Shown: positions 2,611 through 60,717 of the stretch, in pieces
Position numbering within the stretch: the stretch's first letter is position 1
Layout of the letters: every line of letters begins with the position of its first letter
Virus record (IMG/VR): IMGVR_UViG_2802429224_000004
Coordinates: 31,285 to 95,284 of that record
Length of the DNA: 64,000 nucleotides
Origin: a virus
Taxonomy: Duplodnaviria > Heunggongvirae > Uroviricota > Caudoviricetes
Direction: 5' to 3' (one strand)
Notes under the pieces: generated by a model
Told to the model about the DNA's origin: nothing
The model's input: the letters and a program-made list of their open reading frames with translations, nothing else
Databases searched by the model: none
Position numbers and translations under genes: made by a program

Positions 2611-3201
<591 letters not shown>

Positions 3202-10136: not shown

Positions 10137-10646
10137 TTAATCCCAGTCAATCCAGTTGTAGACGATACGAAGTGACGGGCGCACAGCGGCAGTCACATCT
10201 TCGGTACCAAAGTCGATTGCATCACTGTAGATTTTGCAGTCCAACATTTCAATTGTTGTAGCAGCTTTTGTCACAGCGTTAACCCCGGAAGATTTGGATT
10301 CAGGGGTCGCAGCCATCGTGATATCAACATAGTCCTTCGCCGCAATGCGATCTTTAATGAACTGAAGAATATCTCCTTCGATAGTCTCCACGCACTGAAC
10401 CTGGATTTCCCCGGAGTTACGGATTGGGCCGTGCTGGTTGAACTTCACACCATTCGGACCATAGTCTTCCACATCCTCGCGGGTCATTTCAGGGATTTGC
10501 GACGTGCGAACCAATACGCTGATATCTTCATAGCCTGCAAAAGTGAGCTGGAATTCAGAAGATACCAGTCGTTCGCCTTTGGCCGCGTTGGCAGTATAGC
10601 GGCCCTTAATAAATTTACGGTTTCCCTTAGTGTTATTGTGTCCCAT
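10137..10646 (-). CDS. Tail or baseplate structural protein
   Basis: 169 aa in the structural operon. Confidence 0.4.
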   Translation of the reverse strand: MGHNNTKGNRKFIKGRYTANAAKGERLVSSEFQLTFAGYEDISVLVRTSQIPEMTREDVEDYGPNGVKFNQHGPIRNSGEIQVQCVETIEGDILQFIKDRIAAKDYVDITMAATPESKSSGVNAVTKAATTIEMLDCKIYSDAIDFGTEDVTAAVRPSLRIVYNWIDWD

Positions 10647-10657
10647 ATAAAATCCTT

Positions 10658-11239
10658 TTACTGGAACGCCCGAACAATATCGGAGCTGTTATATATCGAT
10701 GAACCGGTCAACTGGAGGTTGACGGTGTTTTTCAGGAAATGCCCATTACTATCCCTAGGGGCATCGAGATCGAAACTTAGGTCCTGGATAGCAACATCAA
10801 TGATGTTGATTCGACGGCCAATGTTTAGCGTCACCCGCTCCGGGATTCGACCACCAATACTGGCGTCTTTAAGTTCCGGGCTAATCATTGCTGACAACGC
10901 GGCGATAGCACCTGAAACTTCCGTATATGGGTCAAACAAAGCGATGAAAGTTACTGGCAGCGTGAAAGTCGGCGGTGTTCCCCCTTCCCAAACCATTAAG
11001 CTGTTCCAACGGGCAACAGACGTTGTTTCAGTACCAACCTGCGCAAAACCACCCAGAGCACCAGAAACAGATCCCATGGACATACCGGTAAACGGCGCTT
11101 CCCAATTCTGGGCCATGTTCATTGCCGCTCCCTGGCTGATATATCCGGTAACCTGGTACTGAGAGTTCGTTAAAGTAACTTTCAGATATGGCGATACACC
11201 GTCAGCCTGGCTGTAAACCCCATAAGCTATAGGAGCCAT
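10658..11239 (-). CDS. Tail structural protein
   Basis: 193 aa in the structural operon. Confidence 0.4.
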   Translation of the reverse strand: MAPIAYGVYSQADGVSPYLKVTLTNSQYQVTGYISQGAAMNMAQNWEAPFTGMSMGSVSGALGGFAQVGTETTSVARWNSLMVWEGGTPPTFTLPVTFIALFDPYTEVSGAIAALSAMISPELKDASIGGRIPERVTLNIGRRINIIDVAIQDLSFDLDAPRDSNGHFLKNTVNLQLTGSSIYNSSDIVRAFQ

Positions 11240-22953: not shown

Positions 22954-23851
22954 GCACTGGAAAAACATTACTATTTATAAACTTTCTCGTGAGGCGGATC
23001 TGACCGATTTAGAAGCTAAAAAGAAAATGATCCTTTTCACGCCATGCTGTAGTCAGGATATGGTCAAGTTCGGTTTTGTATCTCCATTTGGTGATAATTC
23101 CGAAGTTATCGCTATGCATGGAAATGGTTTTATCCTTGTTGAAGCAAAGCGCGAAACAAAAATTCTTCCCCCGCCGGTTATCCAGCGAGCTATTCAAGAA
23201 AAAATTGAAAAACTTGAGCAAGAACAAGCGCGTAAACTGAAGAAAACAGAGAAGGACTCCCTGAAAGACGAAGTTCTGCATTCTCTTCTGCCACGGGCTT
23301 TTTCAAAGTTTTCTGTTATCCAGGCGATCTACGACGGTTCAACTAAACGTATCTATATCAATGCCAGCGCGCGGCAGGCAGAGGATATGCTCGCGCTTAT
23401 GCGTAAATCTCTGGGTTCTCTTCCTGTTGTTCCCCTAAGTGTTGAAAATCCCATTGAATTAACGCTGACCGACTGGGTACGTGATGGTAGTGCTCCACAG
23501 GGATTTCAAATGGGGGATGCGGCAGAACTTAAGGCAGTGCTTGAGGATGGCGGTATTGCCCGAGTGAAAAAGCAGGATTTGGGAAGCGATGAAATTTCCA
23601 CACACCTGGAAGCTGGCAAGCTCGTCACTAAGTTGGCACTCGACTGGCAGAACCGCATTAAATTTACACTGGACCATAACTTCAGCCTTACCAGCGTCAA
23701 ATTTGCGGATGAATTGCTTGAGCAGAACTCTGATATTGATAGTGAAGATGTAGCGCAGCGACTGGACGCAGATTTCTTCCTGTTGACCAGTGAAATTTCG
23801 TGCCTGGTTGATGCTCTGGTAAATGCCCTTGGTGGAGAGGCTAAGCAGTGA
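22946..23851 (+). CDS. rdgC: RdgC-family recombination-associated protein
   Basis: 302 aa from [16 protein letters not shown]...; [25 protein letters not shown] and [13 protein letters not shown] match E. coli RdgC as remembered. Confidence 0.7.
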
Positions 23852-26112
23852 AAGAGCTGTGCTATGGATCTGTTTGCAGTGGAATTGAAGCCGCGAGTAT
23901 TGCCTGGGAACCGTTGGGTATGCGTCCGGCGTGGTTTGCTGAAATCGAGCCTTTTCCATCTGCCGTTCTTGCGCACCGCTGGCCCCATGTCGCCAACCTT
24001 GGCGACATGACAAAACTTGCCAAAAAAGTCCTGGCTGGGGAAATCGAATCCCCTGATGTGCTCGTCGGGGGAACACCTTGTCAGGCATTCAGTATCGCTG
24101 GATTACGTGGTGGGCTTGATGATGAGCGTGGCGCGCTAACTTTAAAGTATGTGGAGCTTGCAAATGCAATTGACGACAAACGGGCTGAGTCATTTCTCAA
24201 ACCAGCCGTTATCGTCTGGGAAAATGTCCCAGGAGTCTTGTCATCGGCAGATAACGCCTTCGGATGTTTCCTTGCCGGATTGGCTGGAGAAGATGCGCCA
24301 TTTGAACCAGGTGATCGACCTGAATCAGGAAAAAGTAACGCGTTCTGGCGGTGGGATGGCAAAACCGGTTGCCATGCTCCAAAGTGGCCGCAGTGTGGTT
24401 GTATTTATGGACCGCAGCGAAAAGTGGCCTGGAGAATCCTTGATGCCCAATACTTCGGAGTGGCACAACGACGCCGACGCGTGTTTGTTGTCGCAAGTGC
24501 TCGAACAGACCTCGATCCCGCAACGGTACTTTTTGAGTTCGAAGGCGTGCGCCGGAATATTGCGCCGAGCCGAAAAAAGAAGGAAATCACTTCCGCCATT
24601 ATTGCAAATGGCGCTGCAATCAGTGGCGAAAGCCTAAATCTATGCCTACACGCTGACATGCCACCCGGTATGAAATCGACGAAAGCCGTAAACGCTTTCA
24701 GGATGGCAGCATTTGGGGAATATATTGACGATGAAACCGCATCGACAGTAAAGGCAAGAGATTTTAAAGATGCCACTGACCTTGCCGTTTTTAGCAGCAC
24801 AGGAGCAGGTTTTTGGTCAGAAGGGCATGGTACATTGCGGGCACGTGAGCAAGAAAGCCATGAGCATCTTGTTACATTGGCTTTTCCTGAGCGTATGAGC
24901 GGTACACAACATGCTGCAACTAAGAATACTTCACCATCTCTAATGGCTAAAAATCCAACAGCTGTTTGCTATGAAGTAAGAAACGCAGAAGTAGCTGTCC
25001 GCCGTCTTACCCCTGTCGAATGTGAAAGGCTGCAAGGTTTTCCTGATGGGCATACGTTGATCCCGACGGAAAAGCGTAAAAAAGTTAATTCAGATGAACT
25101 GGCATACCTTCGCAAAAACTATCCTGATTTGAGCGAAGAAGAGGCCGCGATGCTTGCAGCTGACGGACCGCGTTACAAAGCGATCGGCAATAGTATGGCG
25201 ATACCAGTAATGCGCTGGATTGGCGATCGGATTACCAAGGCTGCATGTCGGCAGAATGAAGGGAATGAAACAAAAGAGCGAAAAGTTAAACCAGCGGCAG
25301 AATTCGAACGGTCCATATTCAAATGGGCTGGTGGAAAATTTGGTGTTCTGGAACAAATCTTTCGCTATTTGCCAGAAGGGAAGCGCCTGATTGAACCTTT
25401 CGTCGGTGGCGGAGCTGTCTTCATGAATGCCGGATACAAGGAAAATCTGCTAAATGATGTGAATGCTGACCTGATTAACTTTTACAAGACTTTGCAACGT
25501 GAGGAACGTTCACTTATCACTCTGGCGCATCGGTTTTTCCAGGACTACAACACACAGGAAGGATACCTGGCAGTACGGAATGCGTTTAACAAACAAGTCT
25601 ATGATGATTTACATCGCGCAGCGGCGTTTTTGTTCCTGAACCGACATTGTTTTAACGGATTGACGCGTTACAACCAAGCCGGTGAGTTCAATGTCGGTTA
25701 TGGGAAGTATAAAACTCCGTATTTCCCATTGCAGGAGATGGAAGCCTTCCTTGGTGCGGAAGGGCGTTCTGAGTTTGTATGTGGTGATTTTGCTGCGGTG
25801 ATTGAAGCTGCCGGAGAAGGAGATGTCATTTTTTGCGATCCGCCATATGAACCGCTTCCAAATACAGAGGGATTCACGAACTATTCCGGTCATGACTTTA
25901 AGTTTGAAGAGCAAAAACGCCTGGTGTCTCTGTTGACGGATGCTCATCGCCGAGGTGCAAAGGTTCTAATTACTAACAGTGGCGCGCCAAATATCAGAGA
26001 GCTTTATCATGACAGTGGCTTCAGAGTGGAACCTCTTTTTGCCAGACGTTCTGTGTCTTGTAAGGGGGACACTCGAGGTGTAGCTCATGACGTTTTAGGT
26101 ATATTGCTCTAA
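23848..26112 (+). CDS. dmt: Bifunctional DNA methyltransferase Dmt: N-terminal C5-cytosine domain, C-terminal Dam-like N6-adenine domain
   Basis: 754 aa; [12 protein letters not shown] (PCQ motif) and [11 protein letters not shown] (ENV motif); later [12 protein letters not shown]...EPFVGGGAV and DPPY. Confidence 0.8.
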
Positions 26113-26119: not shown

Positions 26120-26293
26120 ATTAGTGTAATATCGCCTCAATGAATCGTGATTTATAGAGCGATTTAGCTGTTAGCCGCGACAGGCGCGGCGGTAAGCATG
26201 GCTGGGCCTAGTCCTCCCAGACAAACCACCGAGTTGCCAGGTTGACCATGCGCCTAAGTGGCAACACCGAAGTGCGTTACGAGCTTCCAGTTT

Positions 26294-26318
26294 GCCCATC
26301 TTCGGGTGGGCGTTTTTT
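26294..26318 (+). terminator. Rho-independent terminator or attenuator about 180 nt downstream of the operator
   Basis: GCCCATC-TTCG-GGTGGGC followed by GTTTTTT. Confidence 0.55.
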
Positions 26319-26498
26319 CAGGGTTTTCGTCATGGTTAGCGACTTTGCGGCGGTTTAGAAACTGACCATTAAAGTAAATGCAAACGATGATCTGATGATG
26401 GCAGCGGCCTAAGAAGCCAGACGCCACGGGGTATGAGTCGTCCCCCGTCAAAAAATCGACCGCAGAGTGTCCCCGTCTGTGTATTAGGGAACGGGGAG

Positions 26499-26579
26499 GC
26501 ACAACAGGTAAGGGCGCTGGTGTGATTAACCAGATGAACGAGAAGGGGCCATCTGTTGGTCAGCGTCCTTTCCTGTTGC
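26499..26579 (+). other. Structured hairpin element Y1
   Basis: GCACAACAGGTAAGGGCG pairs with CGTCCTTTCCTGTTGCG around an internal hairpin. Confidence 0.35.
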
Positions 26580-46175: not shown

Positions 46176-46451
46176 ATGGCAAAAGCCATGATGATACTTA
46201 CCGAATATCAGTTTGACCATAAAACCAATAAATCACGTTCAGTATATTTGCTTCGGCACAATAGCCGCGTAAGGAATACCGTGCTGGAGCAAAATCTGAC
46301 CGTTGAAATGGATAAATTTGGGAACTTCAAGCCAACAATTGCGCTTGATGATTTCCCGCGTGGTTTAAGCGAAAGAGAAGCCATGCTGAAATTAGCAGAA
46401 TGGCTTCAGAGGTTAAGTATTGTTATTGAAGATAACTGGAGCCAACCATAA
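46176..46451 (+). CDS. Hypothetical protein
   Basis: 91 aa. Confidence 0.4.
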   Translation: MAKAMMILTEYQFDHKTNKSRSVYLLRHNSRVRNTVLEQNLTVEMDKFGNFKPTIALDDFPRGLSEREAMLKLAEWLQRLSIVIEDNWSQP

Positions 46452-46916: not shown

Positions 46917-47668
46917 CCAGAATCACTAAAGAGCGTATATCAGAGATTATTTCCCGTATTGAAATGTATGGTCACGGTGCTGGATATACGGCAGATGAAG
47001 TATTGGCGCTTGCCAAAATAGCGTTAGCGCCTTGCAAGGATGGTAACGGAATGACACTGATTGACTTTTTAGTGAAGGAATTATCTAAGGGGGCTGGATG
47101 GCCTGATGGAAAAGGTTTTTGCTATCTATCCATTCCGCTGGCAGGTTGTAGTTGGGCTACGGTTCGTTTTGATACGCGCTACAAAAATTACCAACCATCA
47201 AAGAATTATTCATTTGATGGCATTATTTGCGATATCAGTGACTTTGATCGCAGTGCGTTCACATCGGTTGTCACTCGTGAACAGTATGAAGCAGCTCGCA
47301 TAGCGTCTCAGAAAGTCGAGTTCAATGGTGATGAACTTGAAAGTAAGGCTTACAAGTTAGATTTTGAGCAATGGCTGGAACAGCAACGCGGGAAAATCGA
47401 TGTGGACTGCGGTTGTGTGTCTGCGGAAACATTCATGCACTGGTTGCGGGTAGCTTATGAGGCTGGTAACCATCCGGATCTTCCGGATAGTTCCCAACAA
47501 GCGCCCAGGAAAAGCGTAAAAAACACTCTGGAAAGAGGCTATCTTGAGGCCGCATTAAAGATTAAGCCGGGCCATACGCTAGGCGTCATTGATGCCATGT
47601 TAGTTCATGAAATGGCTAAGGCTTTATTGCCACTGGTAGCAGATCAACATGAGGCTAGTCATGCATGA
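46913..47668 (+). CDS. Hypothetical protein
   Basis: 251 aa. Confidence 0.45.
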   Translation: MTRITKERISEIISRIEMYGHGAGYTADEVLALAKIALAPCKDGNGMTLIDFLVKELSKGAGWPDGKGFCYLSIPLAGCSWATVRFDTRYKNYQPSKNYSFDGIICDISDFDRSAFTSVVTREQYEAARIASQKVEFNGDELESKAYKLDFEQWLEQQRGKIDVDCGCVSAETFMHWLRVAYEAGNHPDLPDSSQQAPRKSVKNTLERGYLEAALKIKPGHTLGVIDAMLVHEMAKALLPLVADQHEASHA

Positions 47669-47939
47669 TTCTCCCACGTCCGCGCCCACCGAAAATGGAG
47701 AAAAAAGGATGATTAATGGCTATCAGCCGCATACCCCAGAAATACAAGGGAGCGAGGGGCTTAAACCACCACCAGCACCACGTATTCCGCCTGTAGCAAG
47801 GAATGCATCATTACGACGAGACTTAATATTAGCCTTGTCGCCCGTTCTGGCTGCCCGCCAGGATTGGGTGAGTAATGATGACCTGGCAGAAAAAATCACA
47901 TCGCTGGTGGATAAAATTCTGGATAAAGCTGATATCTGA
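47649..47939 (+). CDS. Hypothetical protein
   Basis: 96 aa. Confidence 0.3.
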   Translation: MRLVMHDSPTSAPTENGEKRMINGYQPHTPEIQGSEGLKPPPAPRIPPVARNASLRRDLILALSPVLAARQDWVSNDDLAEKITSLVDKILDKADI

Positions 47940-47978
47940 TCACCATGCTAAAATCCCCTCAATTCACAGAGGGGATTT

Positions 47979-48251
47979 TTGTATATGTTGCATAGAGTTT
48001 TATGGAAAAGCGTTATTGTCGGCGCGATGTTGGCAGTGTCTGGATGTGCGATGGTGCAATACAATGACGGTGAAAAGGTAAGCATCCAGTCAGATGGCTG
48101 GTATGGGCTGGATAGCCTGCAAAAAACCGCAGATAAAGCCTGTCAGCAATATGGGAAGTCTAAAGCCGTATATCAGCATAGCGCGAACGCTAACCCTCAT
48201 CTTGCGCCCGGTTCGGGTGTTCAGAACACCATCTGGAAATGTGAGCCTTAA
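47979..48251 (+). CDS. Lipoprotein (P1 uhr position)
   Basis: Lipobox AVSGC. Confidence 0.4.
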
Positions 48252-48253
48252 AC

Positions 48254-48505
48254 ATGAGCGACTGGAATATTGCAGCCAAAAGTCAGGAAGAACGGGATAA
48301 GGTTAACGTTGATTTGGCTGCCAGCGGTGTGGCGTACAAAGAGCGATTGAACATACCTGTCATAGCTGAACAGGTAGCCCGCGAGCAACCGGAGAACCTG
48401 CGTGTCTATTTTATGGAACGGCTGCGGCACTATCGGCAGTTAAGCCTCCAGTTGCCAAAAGGGAATGATCTAGTATATCAGAAAGATGATATAGCCAAAA
48501 AATAA
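48254..48505 (+). CDS. hot: Hot, homolog of DNA polymerase III theta subunit
   Basis: 83 aa; [33 protein letters not shown] resembles E. coli HolE as remembered. Confidence 0.7.
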
Positions 48506-48564
48506 CGCGACCCAGGCGAGCACAAAGCATTGCTCTGTTGCACGCACCGAGCCTCTTTAATGCA

Positions 48565-48584
48565 TGCTGTATATATAAACAGCA
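48565..48584 (+). promoter_or_regulatory. LexA (SOS) box upstream of humD
   Basis: TGCTGTATATATAAACAGCA fits CTGT-N8-ACAG. Confidence 0.6.
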
Positions 48585-48602
48585 TTTTGAAGTGAAAACG
48601 CT

Positions 48603-48988
48603 ATGGGCTTCCCTTCTCCTGCGGCGGATTACGCTGAACGCCGCATATCTCTTGATCAGCACCTAATCAGGCATCCATCAGCCACCTACTTCATGCGGGC
48701 GGCTGACAGCCATTACCGCGAAGGCATCTTGCAAGGGGCGTTGCTGGTGGTAGATTCCTCACTCCAGTTGATGGTTCGCTGCTTGTATGTGCTATAGAGG
48801 GTGAATATCGCGTAAAAAGATACCGGAAGTATCCGCGCCAGCACCTGGAGGATTTAAGCACCGGGAAGAAAGAGGCGTTACCAGTAGATGACGATGGTTA
48901 CACGGGTAGTAATGCTGTTTTTGGTGTGATCACCCACATTATCAATGACGCCAGGGGCGGTGAATTTGATGATAGTCCTGCTATATGA
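48603..48988 (+). pseudogene. humD: humD (UmuD'-like, peptidase S24) interrupted by a 1-nt frameshift near 48760
   Basis: Frame 1 reads ...GALLVVDSSLQLMVRCLYVL then stop at 48797; a second frame continues ...TPVDGSLLVCAIEGEYRVKRY...VFGVITHIIN to a stop at 48988. Joined, they resemble UmuD'. Confidence 0.5.
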
Positions 48989-49122
48989 TTTGTTTTCATA
49001 GAAACCATAGAGAGGCATGACTGGACCTATATCGCCCAGGCCATTTAAATGATTCCTCCCATTAGACGCGGTTACTCACTTGAAGATAAGATGAGGTTAT
49101 AATTCTCTTTTTAGGTGCGCGA

Positions 49123-49545
49123 ATGAGTTCGTCTGCTTTTGTCACTGTTGTCACTGGAGTAAGCGTTTTTGTCCTAGGTCGACTCATCATCAAGGGGGTT
49201 GAGTCTTACATTTCATTCAAGGAACAGTTGGGGGAAATATCGCATCTGTTATTGTCTAACCAAGCAAAGCTATCGAATCCCGGCTCTGACTTAAAACAAG
49301 AAATCATCCATGATTTGAAAGATGCGGCAGCACAGTTACGGGTGAAGTACGAACTATTACCTTTCTATATCAAAATGTTACCCATCGGTTTTCGCCTTGT
49401 TCCATCAGAAACTGAAATTCGTAAAGCGGCGCAAGAATTGAATCGGATAGCCTCAATACATGATGGTAAAACCGGAGGGCTGCCATATGAGCACATAGCC
49501 AAGATTGGACTACTGCTCAGAATTCCAACCACTTATTCTGCTTAA
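49123..49545 (+). CDS. Membrane-anchored protein of unknown function
   Basis: 140 aa; N-terminal TM helix SAFVTVVTGVSVFVLGRLII; GC by eye about 42%. Confidence 0.45.
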   Translation: MSSSAFVTVVTGVSVFVLGRLIIKGVESYISFKEQLGEISHLLLSNQAKLSNPGSDLKQEIIHDLKDAAAQLRVKYELLPFYIKMLPIGFRLVPSETEIRKAAQELNRIASIHDGKTGGLPYEHIAKIGLLLRIPTTYSA

Positions 49546-49653
49546 TCCCAGCAATTGCAAGACTGCATCTCGAGGATTTAAGGCACCAAGAAGTGGTATC
49601 CAGCATCATTAAAACCTATAATTGCGTACACATAACGAGTACACGAGGTGTTT

Positions 49654-49875
49654 ATGCAATCCATTAACTTCCGTACCGCGCGTGGCAACCTTTCTGAAGT
49701 GCTCAACAATGTTGAAGCTGGGGAAGAGATTGAAATCACCCGCAGAGGCCGTGAGCCAGCAGTAATTGTCAGCAAGGCTACTTTCGAAGCCTACAAAAAA
49801 GCAGCGCTGGATGCTGAATTTGCATCCCTGTTTGACACCCTGGACTCCACCAACAAGGAACTGGTTAACCGATAA
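49654..49875 (+). CDS. phd: Phd antitoxin
   Basis: 73 aa [39 protein letters not shown]...; GTGTAC-type palindromes upstream. Confidence 0.85.
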
Positions 49876-50255
49876 TGAGGCATATATCACCGGAAGAACT
49901 TATTGCGCTTCATGATGCGAATATAAGCCGCTACGGCGGCCTGCCGGGAATGTCAGATCCGGGTAGGGCAGAGGCCATTATCGGGAGAGTTCAGGCCAGA
50001 GTTGCCTACGAAGAGATCACCGACCTTTTCGAAGTCTCCGCCACCTACCTAGTGGCTACAGCGAGAGGGCATATATTCAATGATGCCAATAAGCGTACCG
50101 CGCTAAACAGTGCGCTGCTATTTCTACGCCGTAACGGGGTGCAGGTATTTGATTCACCTGAACTGGCAGACCTTACCGTAGGCGCTGCGACTGGCGAGAT
50201 ATCTGTATCTTCTGTCGCCGACACGTTACGTAGATTGTATGGTTCCGCGGAGTAG
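49875..50255 (+). CDS. doc: Doc toxin (Fic domain)
   Basis: 126 aa; start overlaps phd stop (TAATG); [11 protein letters not shown] Fic-like motif. Confidence 0.85.
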
Positions 50256-51598: not shown

Positions 51599-52051
51599 AT
51601 GTTACTTAACTGGCAGGGACGCCACTTCATGGAAATAAATCACTCACGAATAACATCGTATGAGATTGCGGATTACATGATCCGCACTAAATCTCTTCTA
51701 TCAGCGAAAGAACTCGCAGCAATCCTTGAAAAGGAATACCCGCATCTGGATGTCGATAAGCGCGACGTTTATCTGCGCTTAAAGGCTATCGCTGTGTCTA
51801 AGTATTCGTCTGTTTTGATTGACGATAGTACGCGCCCACGTAGATTTCAGATCCACTCGCTGAACCCTGAATTCTTTCGCCGCAGCCGCGCTCCGCGCAG
51901 ATTTGATGAAAAACTCCAGAACGAACTCTATATGACGCAGGACGAAAAGGAACGCCGGGAGCACCTGCCTTGGGTAATGGTGCGTCAACTTTTCAATAAG
52001 GTGGCCCGTCAGCACCGTCATTACGGTAATGCCACATCTGCACGTATCTGA
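51599..52051 (+). CDS. lpa: Late promoter activator Lpa candidate
   Basis: 150 aa between the doc region and pacA, preceded by an operator-like site. Confidence 0.5.
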   Translation: MLLNWQGRHFMEINHSRITSYEIADYMIRTKSLLSAKELAAILEKEYPHLDVDKRDVYLRLKAIAVSKYSSVLIDDSTRPRRFQIHSLNPEFFRRSRAPRRFDEKLQNELYMTQDEKERREHLPWVMVRQLFNKVARQHRHYGNATSARI

Positions 52052-58099: not shown

Positions 58100-58288
58100 A
58101 TTAAGGGTTATTGAACATGATCAATTTACCTGTAAATCCATACAGTTCAATACCTTATCAGGTTAAATAGTGATCACTTGATCATTTGATCAAGGTTGCG
58201 CTACGTAAAATCTGCGAAATGTTGGCAGTGTTAGTGCTCCAGATTTCGCGTAGCGCACTTAGCACCACCAATCAATCAGAGGTGAAAA

Positions 58289-60150: not shown

Positions 60151-60717
60151 TTGCCATATGAAAACAATCGAACAAAAATTGAACAGTGCCGCAAGTGGCA
60201 GAAGGCAGCCAGAGAACGAGCGATCGCTCGGCAACGGGAGAAGTTGGCTGATCCGGCCTGGCGAGAATCTCAATATCAGAAAATGCGGAATACTATCGAC
60301 CGCCGTATCGCTAAACAGAAAGAGCGCCCACCAGCCAGCAAAACGCGGAAAAGCGCGGTAAAAATAAAATCTCGTGACTTGAAGGGACGAACACCGACGG
60401 CGGAGGAACGGCGCATAGCCAATGCTCTTGGCGCTCTCCCCTGCATTGCCTGCTATATGCATGGAGTAATATCTGAAGAGGTGTCTCTGCACCATATCTC
60501 CGGTCGTACCGCGCCTGGTTGTCACAAAAAGCAATTGCCACTTTGTAGATGGCACCACCAGCATGCAGCACCGGCTGAAGTAAGAGAAAAATACCCCTGG
60601 CTGGTCCCTGTTCATGCCGATGGTGTGGTTGGAGGCAAGAAAGAATTCACCTTGCTGAACAAGTCAGAGATGGAGTTGCTGGCTGACGCCTATGAAATGG
60701 CAAACATCATGCACTAA
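60151..60717 (+). CDS. ref: Ref, HNH-type RecA-dependent nuclease; N-terminus appears frameshifted in an A5 run
   Basis: HNH-like C-terminus (CIACYMHG...HH...CRWHH); the ATG at 60158 reads MKTIEQK in the +1 frame and would join the ORF if the A-run at 60174-60178 were A6, giving 186 aa. Confidence 0.6.
   Translation: MPYENNRTKIEQCRKWQKAARERAIARQREKLADPAWRESQYQKMRNTIDRRIAKQKERPPASKTRKSAVKIKSRDLKGRTPTAEERRIANALGALPCIACYMHGVISEEVSLHHISGRTAPGCHKKQLPLCRWHHQHAAPAEVREKYPWLVPVHADGVVGGKKEFTLLNKSEMELLADAYEMANIMH

Follow-up and report, generated by a model that had tools for sequence, protein, structure and literature searches.

Does the humD gene of this phage-plasmid still encode a UmuD'-like protein, and if its reading frame is broken, is the break a genuine mutation? 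The gene spans positions 48603-48988 of the window (by which we mean the whole stretch of 64,000 nucleotides that was analysed), and it lies just behind a predicted LexA operator. Our reading of the sequence is that the locus is the humD of a P1/D6-related phage-plasmid and that it was probably inactivated by the recent deletion of one 4-nucleotide repeat unit. The features that bear on the question are listed in Table 1.

Table 1. Features of the humD locus and its neighbours, in window coordinates.
Feature	Position	Strand	Basis or remark
hot	48254..48505	+	DNA polymerase III theta-subunit homologue, 83 aa; intact; directly upstream of humD
LexA (SOS) box TGCTGTATATATAAACAGCA	48565..48584	.	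CTGT-N8-ACAG core at 48567-48582; the humD ATG is 19 nt further on
Shine-Dalgarno-like motif GAAGTG, weakened	48589..48594	+	alignments with P1 (GAGGTG) and D6 (GAGGT)
humD 5' fragment	48603..48797	+	codons 1-53 (48603-48761) HumD-like, then 11 out-of-frame codons and TAG; 64 aa
4-nt deletion site	48759..48765	+	TCACTCC in the window; alignments and blastn gap list; exact place within the repeat is ambiguous
humD 3' fragment	48761..48988	+	Thr55 to Ile129 and TGA, in the -1 (+2) frame; includes Lys73
140-aa gene of the D6 orf109 type	49123..49545	+	between humD and phd; context, outside the lesion
phd-doc addiction module	49648..50255	+	phd 49648-49875, doc 49875-50255; conserved neighbour downstream of humD

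Judged by its sequence, the window is a phage-plasmid of mosaic composition with P1 and D6 among its relatives. A stretch of about 24 kb around humD is 94-96% identical to many P1-like plasmids from E. coli, and the annotated phage that is closest to the humD region is D6 (megablast against a phage collection). The local gene order is hot, LexA box, humD, the 140-aa gene, phd, and doc. As in P1, hot lies upstream and phd-doc lies downstream; the differences from P1 are that lxr is absent and that a gene of the D6 orf109 type has been inserted. The hot product matches Pfam DNA_pol3_theta (115 bits) and NCBIfam PRK10969 (103 bits), and phd-doc is syntenic with both D6 and P1, with a DNA identity of 96-97%. 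The 140-aa protein has a hydrophobic N-terminus and matches phrog_7512 (unknown function; E = 1.6e-74), and searches of Pfam, NCBIfam, and PADLOC gave no match to it. Its gene is found in D6 and in some plasmids and is absent from P1. No umuC partner gene adjoins humD in the neighbourhood that we examined (47500-50255).

In P1 and in the plasmid NZ_CP013030.1, lxr is a divergent, LexA-regulated gene between hot and humD. At this site in the window (48505-48603), the stop codon of hot is only 97 nt from the humD ATG, versus a 573-nt lxr in P1, so lxr is absent. With lxr gone, humD is the LexA box's only target. The hot gene of D6 is annotated at only 147 nt (2895-3041 of locus L001) and lacks the 3' part that the window's hot has; this shortening would be another sign of decay in the hot-humD region.

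The reading frame that begins at the humD ATG starts with MGFPSPAADY and ends in ...VVDSSLQLMVRCLYVL*. It stops after 64 codons instead of continuing for about 129, and the rest of the gene is in another frame. That frame (-1, or +2) reads TPVDGSLLVCAIEGEYRVKRY..., with no internal stop, through the TGA at 48986-48988. The initial annotation had the ends and translations of both frames right, and the break that it had placed near 48760 is indeed at 48759-48765. It had also described the lesion as a single-base frameshift, and this we rejected. In every alignment (to D6, P1, two E. coli plasmids, and a metagenomic relative, L005), 4 nt are missing from the window. The alignment to P1 humD had been proposed as a check; when run, it showed this 4-nt gap and not the loss of one base.

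The site is a short tandem TCAC repeat, and the remark that the break does not lie in a homopolymer was correct. The closest intact allele reads TCACTCACTCC here, D6 reads TCACTTACTCC, and P1 reads TCGCTTACTCC; the window sequence across the deletion is GATTCCTCACTCCAG. In loci L005 and L007, GATTCC TCAC TCAC TCC GGT encodes Ser-Ser-Leu-Thr-Pro-Val, and the window has GATTCC TCAC TCC AGT. One tetranucleotide unit is gone (TCAC TCAC TC has become TCAC TC), which takes the repeat from 2.5 units in the closest allele to 1.5 units in the window. If the ancestor was of the D6 type (TCACTTACTCC), a deletion between 3-nt ACT repeats would give the identical product. The net shift in frame is -1, and what has been lost is Leu54 and one base. 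Among related loci from IMG/VR, SSLTPV is invariant at the lesion site in 80 of 80 (the best 80 of 406). On the far side of the break, no ORF of 30 amino acids or more ends at 48988, and any ATG, GTG, or TTG in this frame is fewer than 30 codons from the stop. With no usable start, the 3' half is not translatable separately, and we rejected its independent translation.

What would the gene encode if it were intact? Putting the TCAC unit back gives a protein of 129 aa whose match to the HumD equivalog model NCBIfam NF051876 (curated cutoff of 120 bits) reaches 213 bits and covers residues 1-128 of 129. The unrepaired 64-aa ORF reaches 93.3 bits, which is below the cutoff, and matches across residues 1-57 only. 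Because the repaired protein passes and the encoded one fails, the gene is humD by descent and encodes no member of the family. The initial annotation had stated that the two frames, when joined, give a UmuD'-like protein. As to identity this is borne out by the score of the repaired protein, but plain joining falls short of that protein: since 4 nt are missing, it gives a product without Leu54.

The repaired protein belongs to the S24 fold family. Its residues 2-118 align with UmuD' (1umu) from chain residue 1 onward (E = 2.5e-23), and against full-length UmuD it aligns to residues 25-136. The segment GFPSPAADY, which begins at residue 2 of the query, corresponds to residue 1 of 1umu_A and to residue 25 of the full-length UmuD in 8gmt_B. 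In other words, the protein has a pre-processed start: it begins at the equivalent of UmuD Gly25, without the cleavable N-terminal arm. Counted on the UmuD sequence, its Ser36 corresponds to UmuD Ser60 and its Lys73 to UmuD Lys97. The break, at residues 53/54 (UmuD 77/78), separates Ser36 from Lys73 and removes 76 of the 129 residues. The 64-aa product keeps Ser36 but has neither Lys73 nor any of the C-terminal half of the S24 fold. Devoid of residues 54-129 and hence of the counterpart of Lys97, it would be expected to have lost UmuD'-like function, and we predict that the window copy can no longer substitute for UmuD' in UmuC-dependent SOS mutagenesis.

The near-consensus SOS box that had been reported before humD is confirmed: the 20-mer TGCTGTATATATAAACAGCA has a perfect CTGT-N8-ACAG core and differs from the 20-nt LexA consensus at 3 positions, and it occupies the same alignment columns as the LexA protein_bind feature in the annotation of P1. 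It is the only match with at most 3 mismatches in the 64-kb window (0 expected by chance). All 80 related loci that were kept (the best 80 of 406 in IMG/VR) have a CTGT-N8-ACAG pattern in the 60 nt before humD. The P1 annotation has its LexA site serving both lxr and humD, and the predicted operator of the window stands immediately upstream of humD as well. The P1 box is flanked by TA...TA and the window box by TG...CA. A simple scan found no sigma-70 promoter overlapping the box, so LexA control of the window copy rests on homology to P1. The motif at the Shine-Dalgarno position, GAAGTG, occurs in none of the 80 related loci (best 80 of 406), almost all of which have GAGGTG or GAGGT. It may be relevant as a weakened ribosome-binding signal, as far as the alignments indicate.

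The core pattern alone occurs 3 times in the window, versus 0.65 expected. The second occurrence (core CTGTAAATCCATACAG) is in a LexA-type box at 58128-58147 that adjoins loxP and is the counterpart of the LexA site that the P1 annotation puts over the P2coi promoter. With one box near humD and one near loxP, both LexA sites of the P1 regions that we examined are conserved in the window element. The third occurrence, CTGTTAGCCGCGACAG, is at 26168-26183, just downstream of dmt and near the P1 ban operator/promoter stretch. Given the GC-rich spacer, this match is probably fortuitous rather than a LexA site.

Is the deletion real? It could be that humD is intact in reality and that the 4-nt gap arose during sequencing, polishing, or assembly, or during laboratory propagation of a clone. 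We consider this unlikely, if serious enough to be weighed with care. The allele is a singleton among the records and contigs that were searched: megablast against the phage, plasmid, and E. coli complete-genome collections found no copy of it with an identity of at least 95%; pattern scans of genome, viral, and metagenome contigs, with 0-4 nt permitted at the site, gave no exact match; and an exact-match lookup of the 64-aa product returned no record. The remainder of the gene also looks functional (dN/dS of 0.06-0.11 and no other stops), which would suit an artefact and equally fits a very recent mutation. On the other hand, the lesion is the loss of a 4-nt repeat unit and not an error in the length of a homopolymer, and losses of this kind are not known as a usual error mode of either short or long reads.

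The rest of the window also speaks against an artefact. We compared the window with the 109 annotated genes of its closest plasmid, NZ_CP013030.1, and 79 of these matched. Among the 79 comparable genes, 66 are full length in one frame, and the remaining 13 are accounted for by mosaic replacement, the window edge, paralogues, and an in-frame difference in the length of dmt. Only humD has adjacent matches in different frames, that is, it is the sole two-frame split. Differences whose length is not a multiple of three gather outside coding sequence, as expected for variation that has been filtered by selection and unlike random error: 20 of the 27 such indels relative to the references lie outside homolog-supported coding sequence, which makes up 70% of the window. 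As for the other seven, four compensate each other in a variable segment of the antirepressor and two are in the first codons of genes. The pattern of indels and splits argues for real, selection-filtered variation in an accurate assembly, at least as judged from these comparisons. We infer that the 4-nt deletion is likely a genuine mutation in biological DNA. The suggestion that humD may be a genuine pseudogene is indirectly supported by its being the only split among 79 genes, by the position of 20 of 27 such indels outside homolog-supported coding sequence, and by the kind of lesion, but no second copy of the allele turned up in the collections searched, so an assembly or laboratory artefact keeps some probability.

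Several other differences turned up in the same comparison. A naive six-frame comparison of ORFs gave extra frame splits, which might have pointed to a low-quality assembly; these proved to be no gene disruptions in the window, and we rejected that explanation. The split at 26174-26559 is in a region that is non-coding in P1. The split at 10277-10688 goes back to an ORF whose frame is interrupted in the reference but not in the window. Here the window has a single intact ORF of 169 aa on the minus strand (10137-10646), and the NZ_CP013030.1 counterpart consists of two overlapping ORFs in different frames, with no listed gene and with 1-nt differences at 10306 and 10414; the broken copy is probably the one in the reference.

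At about 52048, at the very end of lpa or just past it, the window lacks another 4 nt that P1 and NZ_CP013030.1 have. The lpa ORF (51599-52051) is still 150 aa long, and there is a 1-nt insertion (52116) in the spacer between lpa and pacA. Two genes have a 1-nt indel relative to NZ_CP013030.1 within their first few codons: ref (60151-60717; indel at 60179), whose ORF in the window starts with TTG, and a hypothetical gene for a 97-aa protein (46179-46448; indel at 46189). These indels probably change the start codon or the N-terminus without breaking the genes. The dmt gene (23848-26112) encodes 754 aa, as implied by the P1 dmt coordinates, and the NZ_CP013030.1 version encodes 1095 aa; an in-frame block of about 1 kb accounts for the extra length.

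If the deletion is real, how old is it? The repaired gene has a dN/dS of 0.055-0.11 relative to D6, P1, and CP013030, in both halves, and the 76 codons that are now untranslated contain no stop. Low dN/dS and the lack of a downstream stop indicate that purifying selection acted on the gene until very recently, and with no other damage to operator or coding sequence, the loss is recent. The allele itself has a mixed history. Codons 1-52 are divergent from D6 (dS of 0.63), and from about 48822 (alignment column 283) to past the end of the gene the DNA is identical to D6. With a divergent 5' third and a 3' part identical to D6, the humD allele of the window is a mosaic.

Disruption of humD is an exception among the relatives: the gene is intact in 80 of 80 related loci that were kept, which are the best-scoring of 406 from IMG/VR and hence biased toward intact genes. 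C-terminally truncated, frameshifted, and internally deleted variants of HumD are present among the protein search matches. (A tblastn survey of plasmids with humD gave at least 5000 records, dominated by homologues of the umuD/mucA type.) One of the variants, P0070, is a chimeric HumD of 119 aa that is found on six contigs from separate samples (metagenome, Logan, and NCBI). In the P0070 loci L005-L009, some 63 nt of unrelated sequence (8020-8082 in L005) stand in place of positions 48252-48714 of the window (463 nt). The replacement takes out hot, the LexA box, and humD codons 1 to about 37. From 48715 on, the DNA of L005 and L006 is 98.4% identical to the window. P0070 is the nearest allele in the 3' part of humD and has the flanking genes of the window, and its humD is likewise disrupted; it differs from the window in that it keeps the 4-nt repeat site (TCACTCACTCC) and has another lesion. 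Going by these alignments, P0070 is an independent inactivation in the lineage with the nearest 3' allele.

Because sister lineages bear two different lesions (a 4-nt slippage and a 463-nt replacement), we tentatively raise the possibility that humD, and hot with it, has been lost repeatedly and independently in the D6-like branch of P1-type phage-plasmids. If so, a constitutively active analogue of UmuD' would be neutral or costly to these elements in some hosts, such as hosts that lack umuC or hosts that are harmed by extra SOS mutagenesis. A genome-wide CRISPRi screen of P1 scored humD as non-essential (PMC10695390), and P1-like phage-plasmids have eight hypervariable regions, one of which runs from pmgT to humD (PMC9603915).

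Could the broken gene still be of use to the element? The 64-aa fragment might have a function of its own, for example by interfering with the host's UmuD/UmuD' or UmuC, or the repeat might act as a reversible on/off switch. Since neither the LexA box nor the ATG has been lost, SOS induction would still produce the fragment, which keeps the conserved N-terminal segment GFPSPAADY...HPSATYF. Nevertheless, we find either role very improbable. More than half of the S24 fold is missing, the fragment is encoded in no other genome by exact-match lookup, and the Shine-Dalgarno motif has, if anything, been weakened. For a switch, the repeat is too short: 1.5 units are left in the window and there are 2.5 in the closest intact allele, and the tracts of known contingency loci are far longer than 1.5-2.5 units. 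Furthermore, contingency genes have a long tract whose length varies, and in the 80 related loci (best 80 of 406) we see an imperfect TC(A/G)CTTAC of constant length.

That a full-length protein is made from the split gene by -1/+2 ribosomal frameshifting or other recoding is negligibly probable, even though the downstream frame is open for 76 codons and perfectly HumD-like: direct reading of 48700-48797 finds no X XXY YYZ slippery heptamer between the last stop in the -1 frame and the stop in the 0 frame, the fold of 48740-48860 is no more stable than shuffled sequences (z = +0.98), which gives no unusually stable downstream RNA structure, there is no Rfam element, and the protein is in a single frame in 80 of 80 related loci (best 80 of 406) and in all aligned relatives, so that the two-frame arrangement is not conserved. 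We rejected a programmed -1 frameshift on these four grounds.

We return to recent inactivation of humD by a repeat-unit deletion, and the sequence of events would be as follows. In intact relatives, humD encodes a 129-aa, pre-processed analogue of UmuD' that should be derepressed when LexA is cleaved, and this HumD would pair with the host's UmuC for translesion synthesis of the Pol V type and for mutagenesis. In the window lineage, replication slippage most likely dropped one TCAC unit from TCAC TCAC TC, which would have removed Leu54 and one base and shifted the frame. Upon SOS induction, only a 64-aa fragment (53 native and 11 out-of-frame residues) would then be made, and we would not expect it to work as UmuD', since it lacks Lys73 and half of the S24 fold, the C-terminal one. 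The loss would be tolerated because humD is a dispensable accessory gene. Overall, we see here a known gene and a known operator with an ordinary, recent, and probably genuine slippage deletion, and no new kind of system.

Rather than two hypothetical ORFs, the annotation of the locus should show a humD pseudogene that results from a 4-nt deletion and is preceded by a LexA operator. Likewise, the window element should not be assumed to enhance the SOS mutagenesis of its host. If the deletion is real, it is one more case of a dispensable humD decaying in natural P1/D6-like phage-plasmids, which would agree with the non-essentiality in the CRISPRi screen (PMC10695390) and with the hypervariability of the pmgT-to-humD stretch (PMC9603915). 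Beyond annotation, the significance is slight.

How does this locus compare with known systems of the UmuD' type? The HumD of P1 (P1_gp103 in NC_005856) is alike in its position upstream of phd-doc, in the alignment columns of its LexA box, and in its N-terminus, MGFPSPAADY. P1 HumD and the repaired window protein are both 129 aa, and their genes differ by 11 non-synonymous versus 33 synonymous changes. P1 HumD is intact, whereas in the window copy codons 53-55 bear the 4-nt deletion and the product is cut to 64 aa. Also, P1 has lxr between hot and humD, whereas the window has no lxr and has an extra gene for a 140-aa protein between humD and phd. McLenigan and colleagues are said to have reported in 1999 (J Bacteriol 181:7005) that P1 HumD is a functional homologue of UmuD'.

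By DNA, phage D6 (NC_050154) is the closest annotated phage. Its orf108 is UmuD-like, and the order orf109-phd-doc is as in the window. However, the humD of D6 is intact and its 5' third is unlike that of the window, and its hot has 147 nt whereas the window has a full-length hot. With the UmuD' of E. coli (1umu, 1i4v, and 1ay9; UmuD in 8gmt), the repaired protein has the S24 fold family in common. UmuD is a precursor of 139 aa that needs RecA-stimulated self-cleavage, and HumD begins at the cleavage product. Unlike UmuD', the window copy ends at the equivalent of UmuD residue 77.
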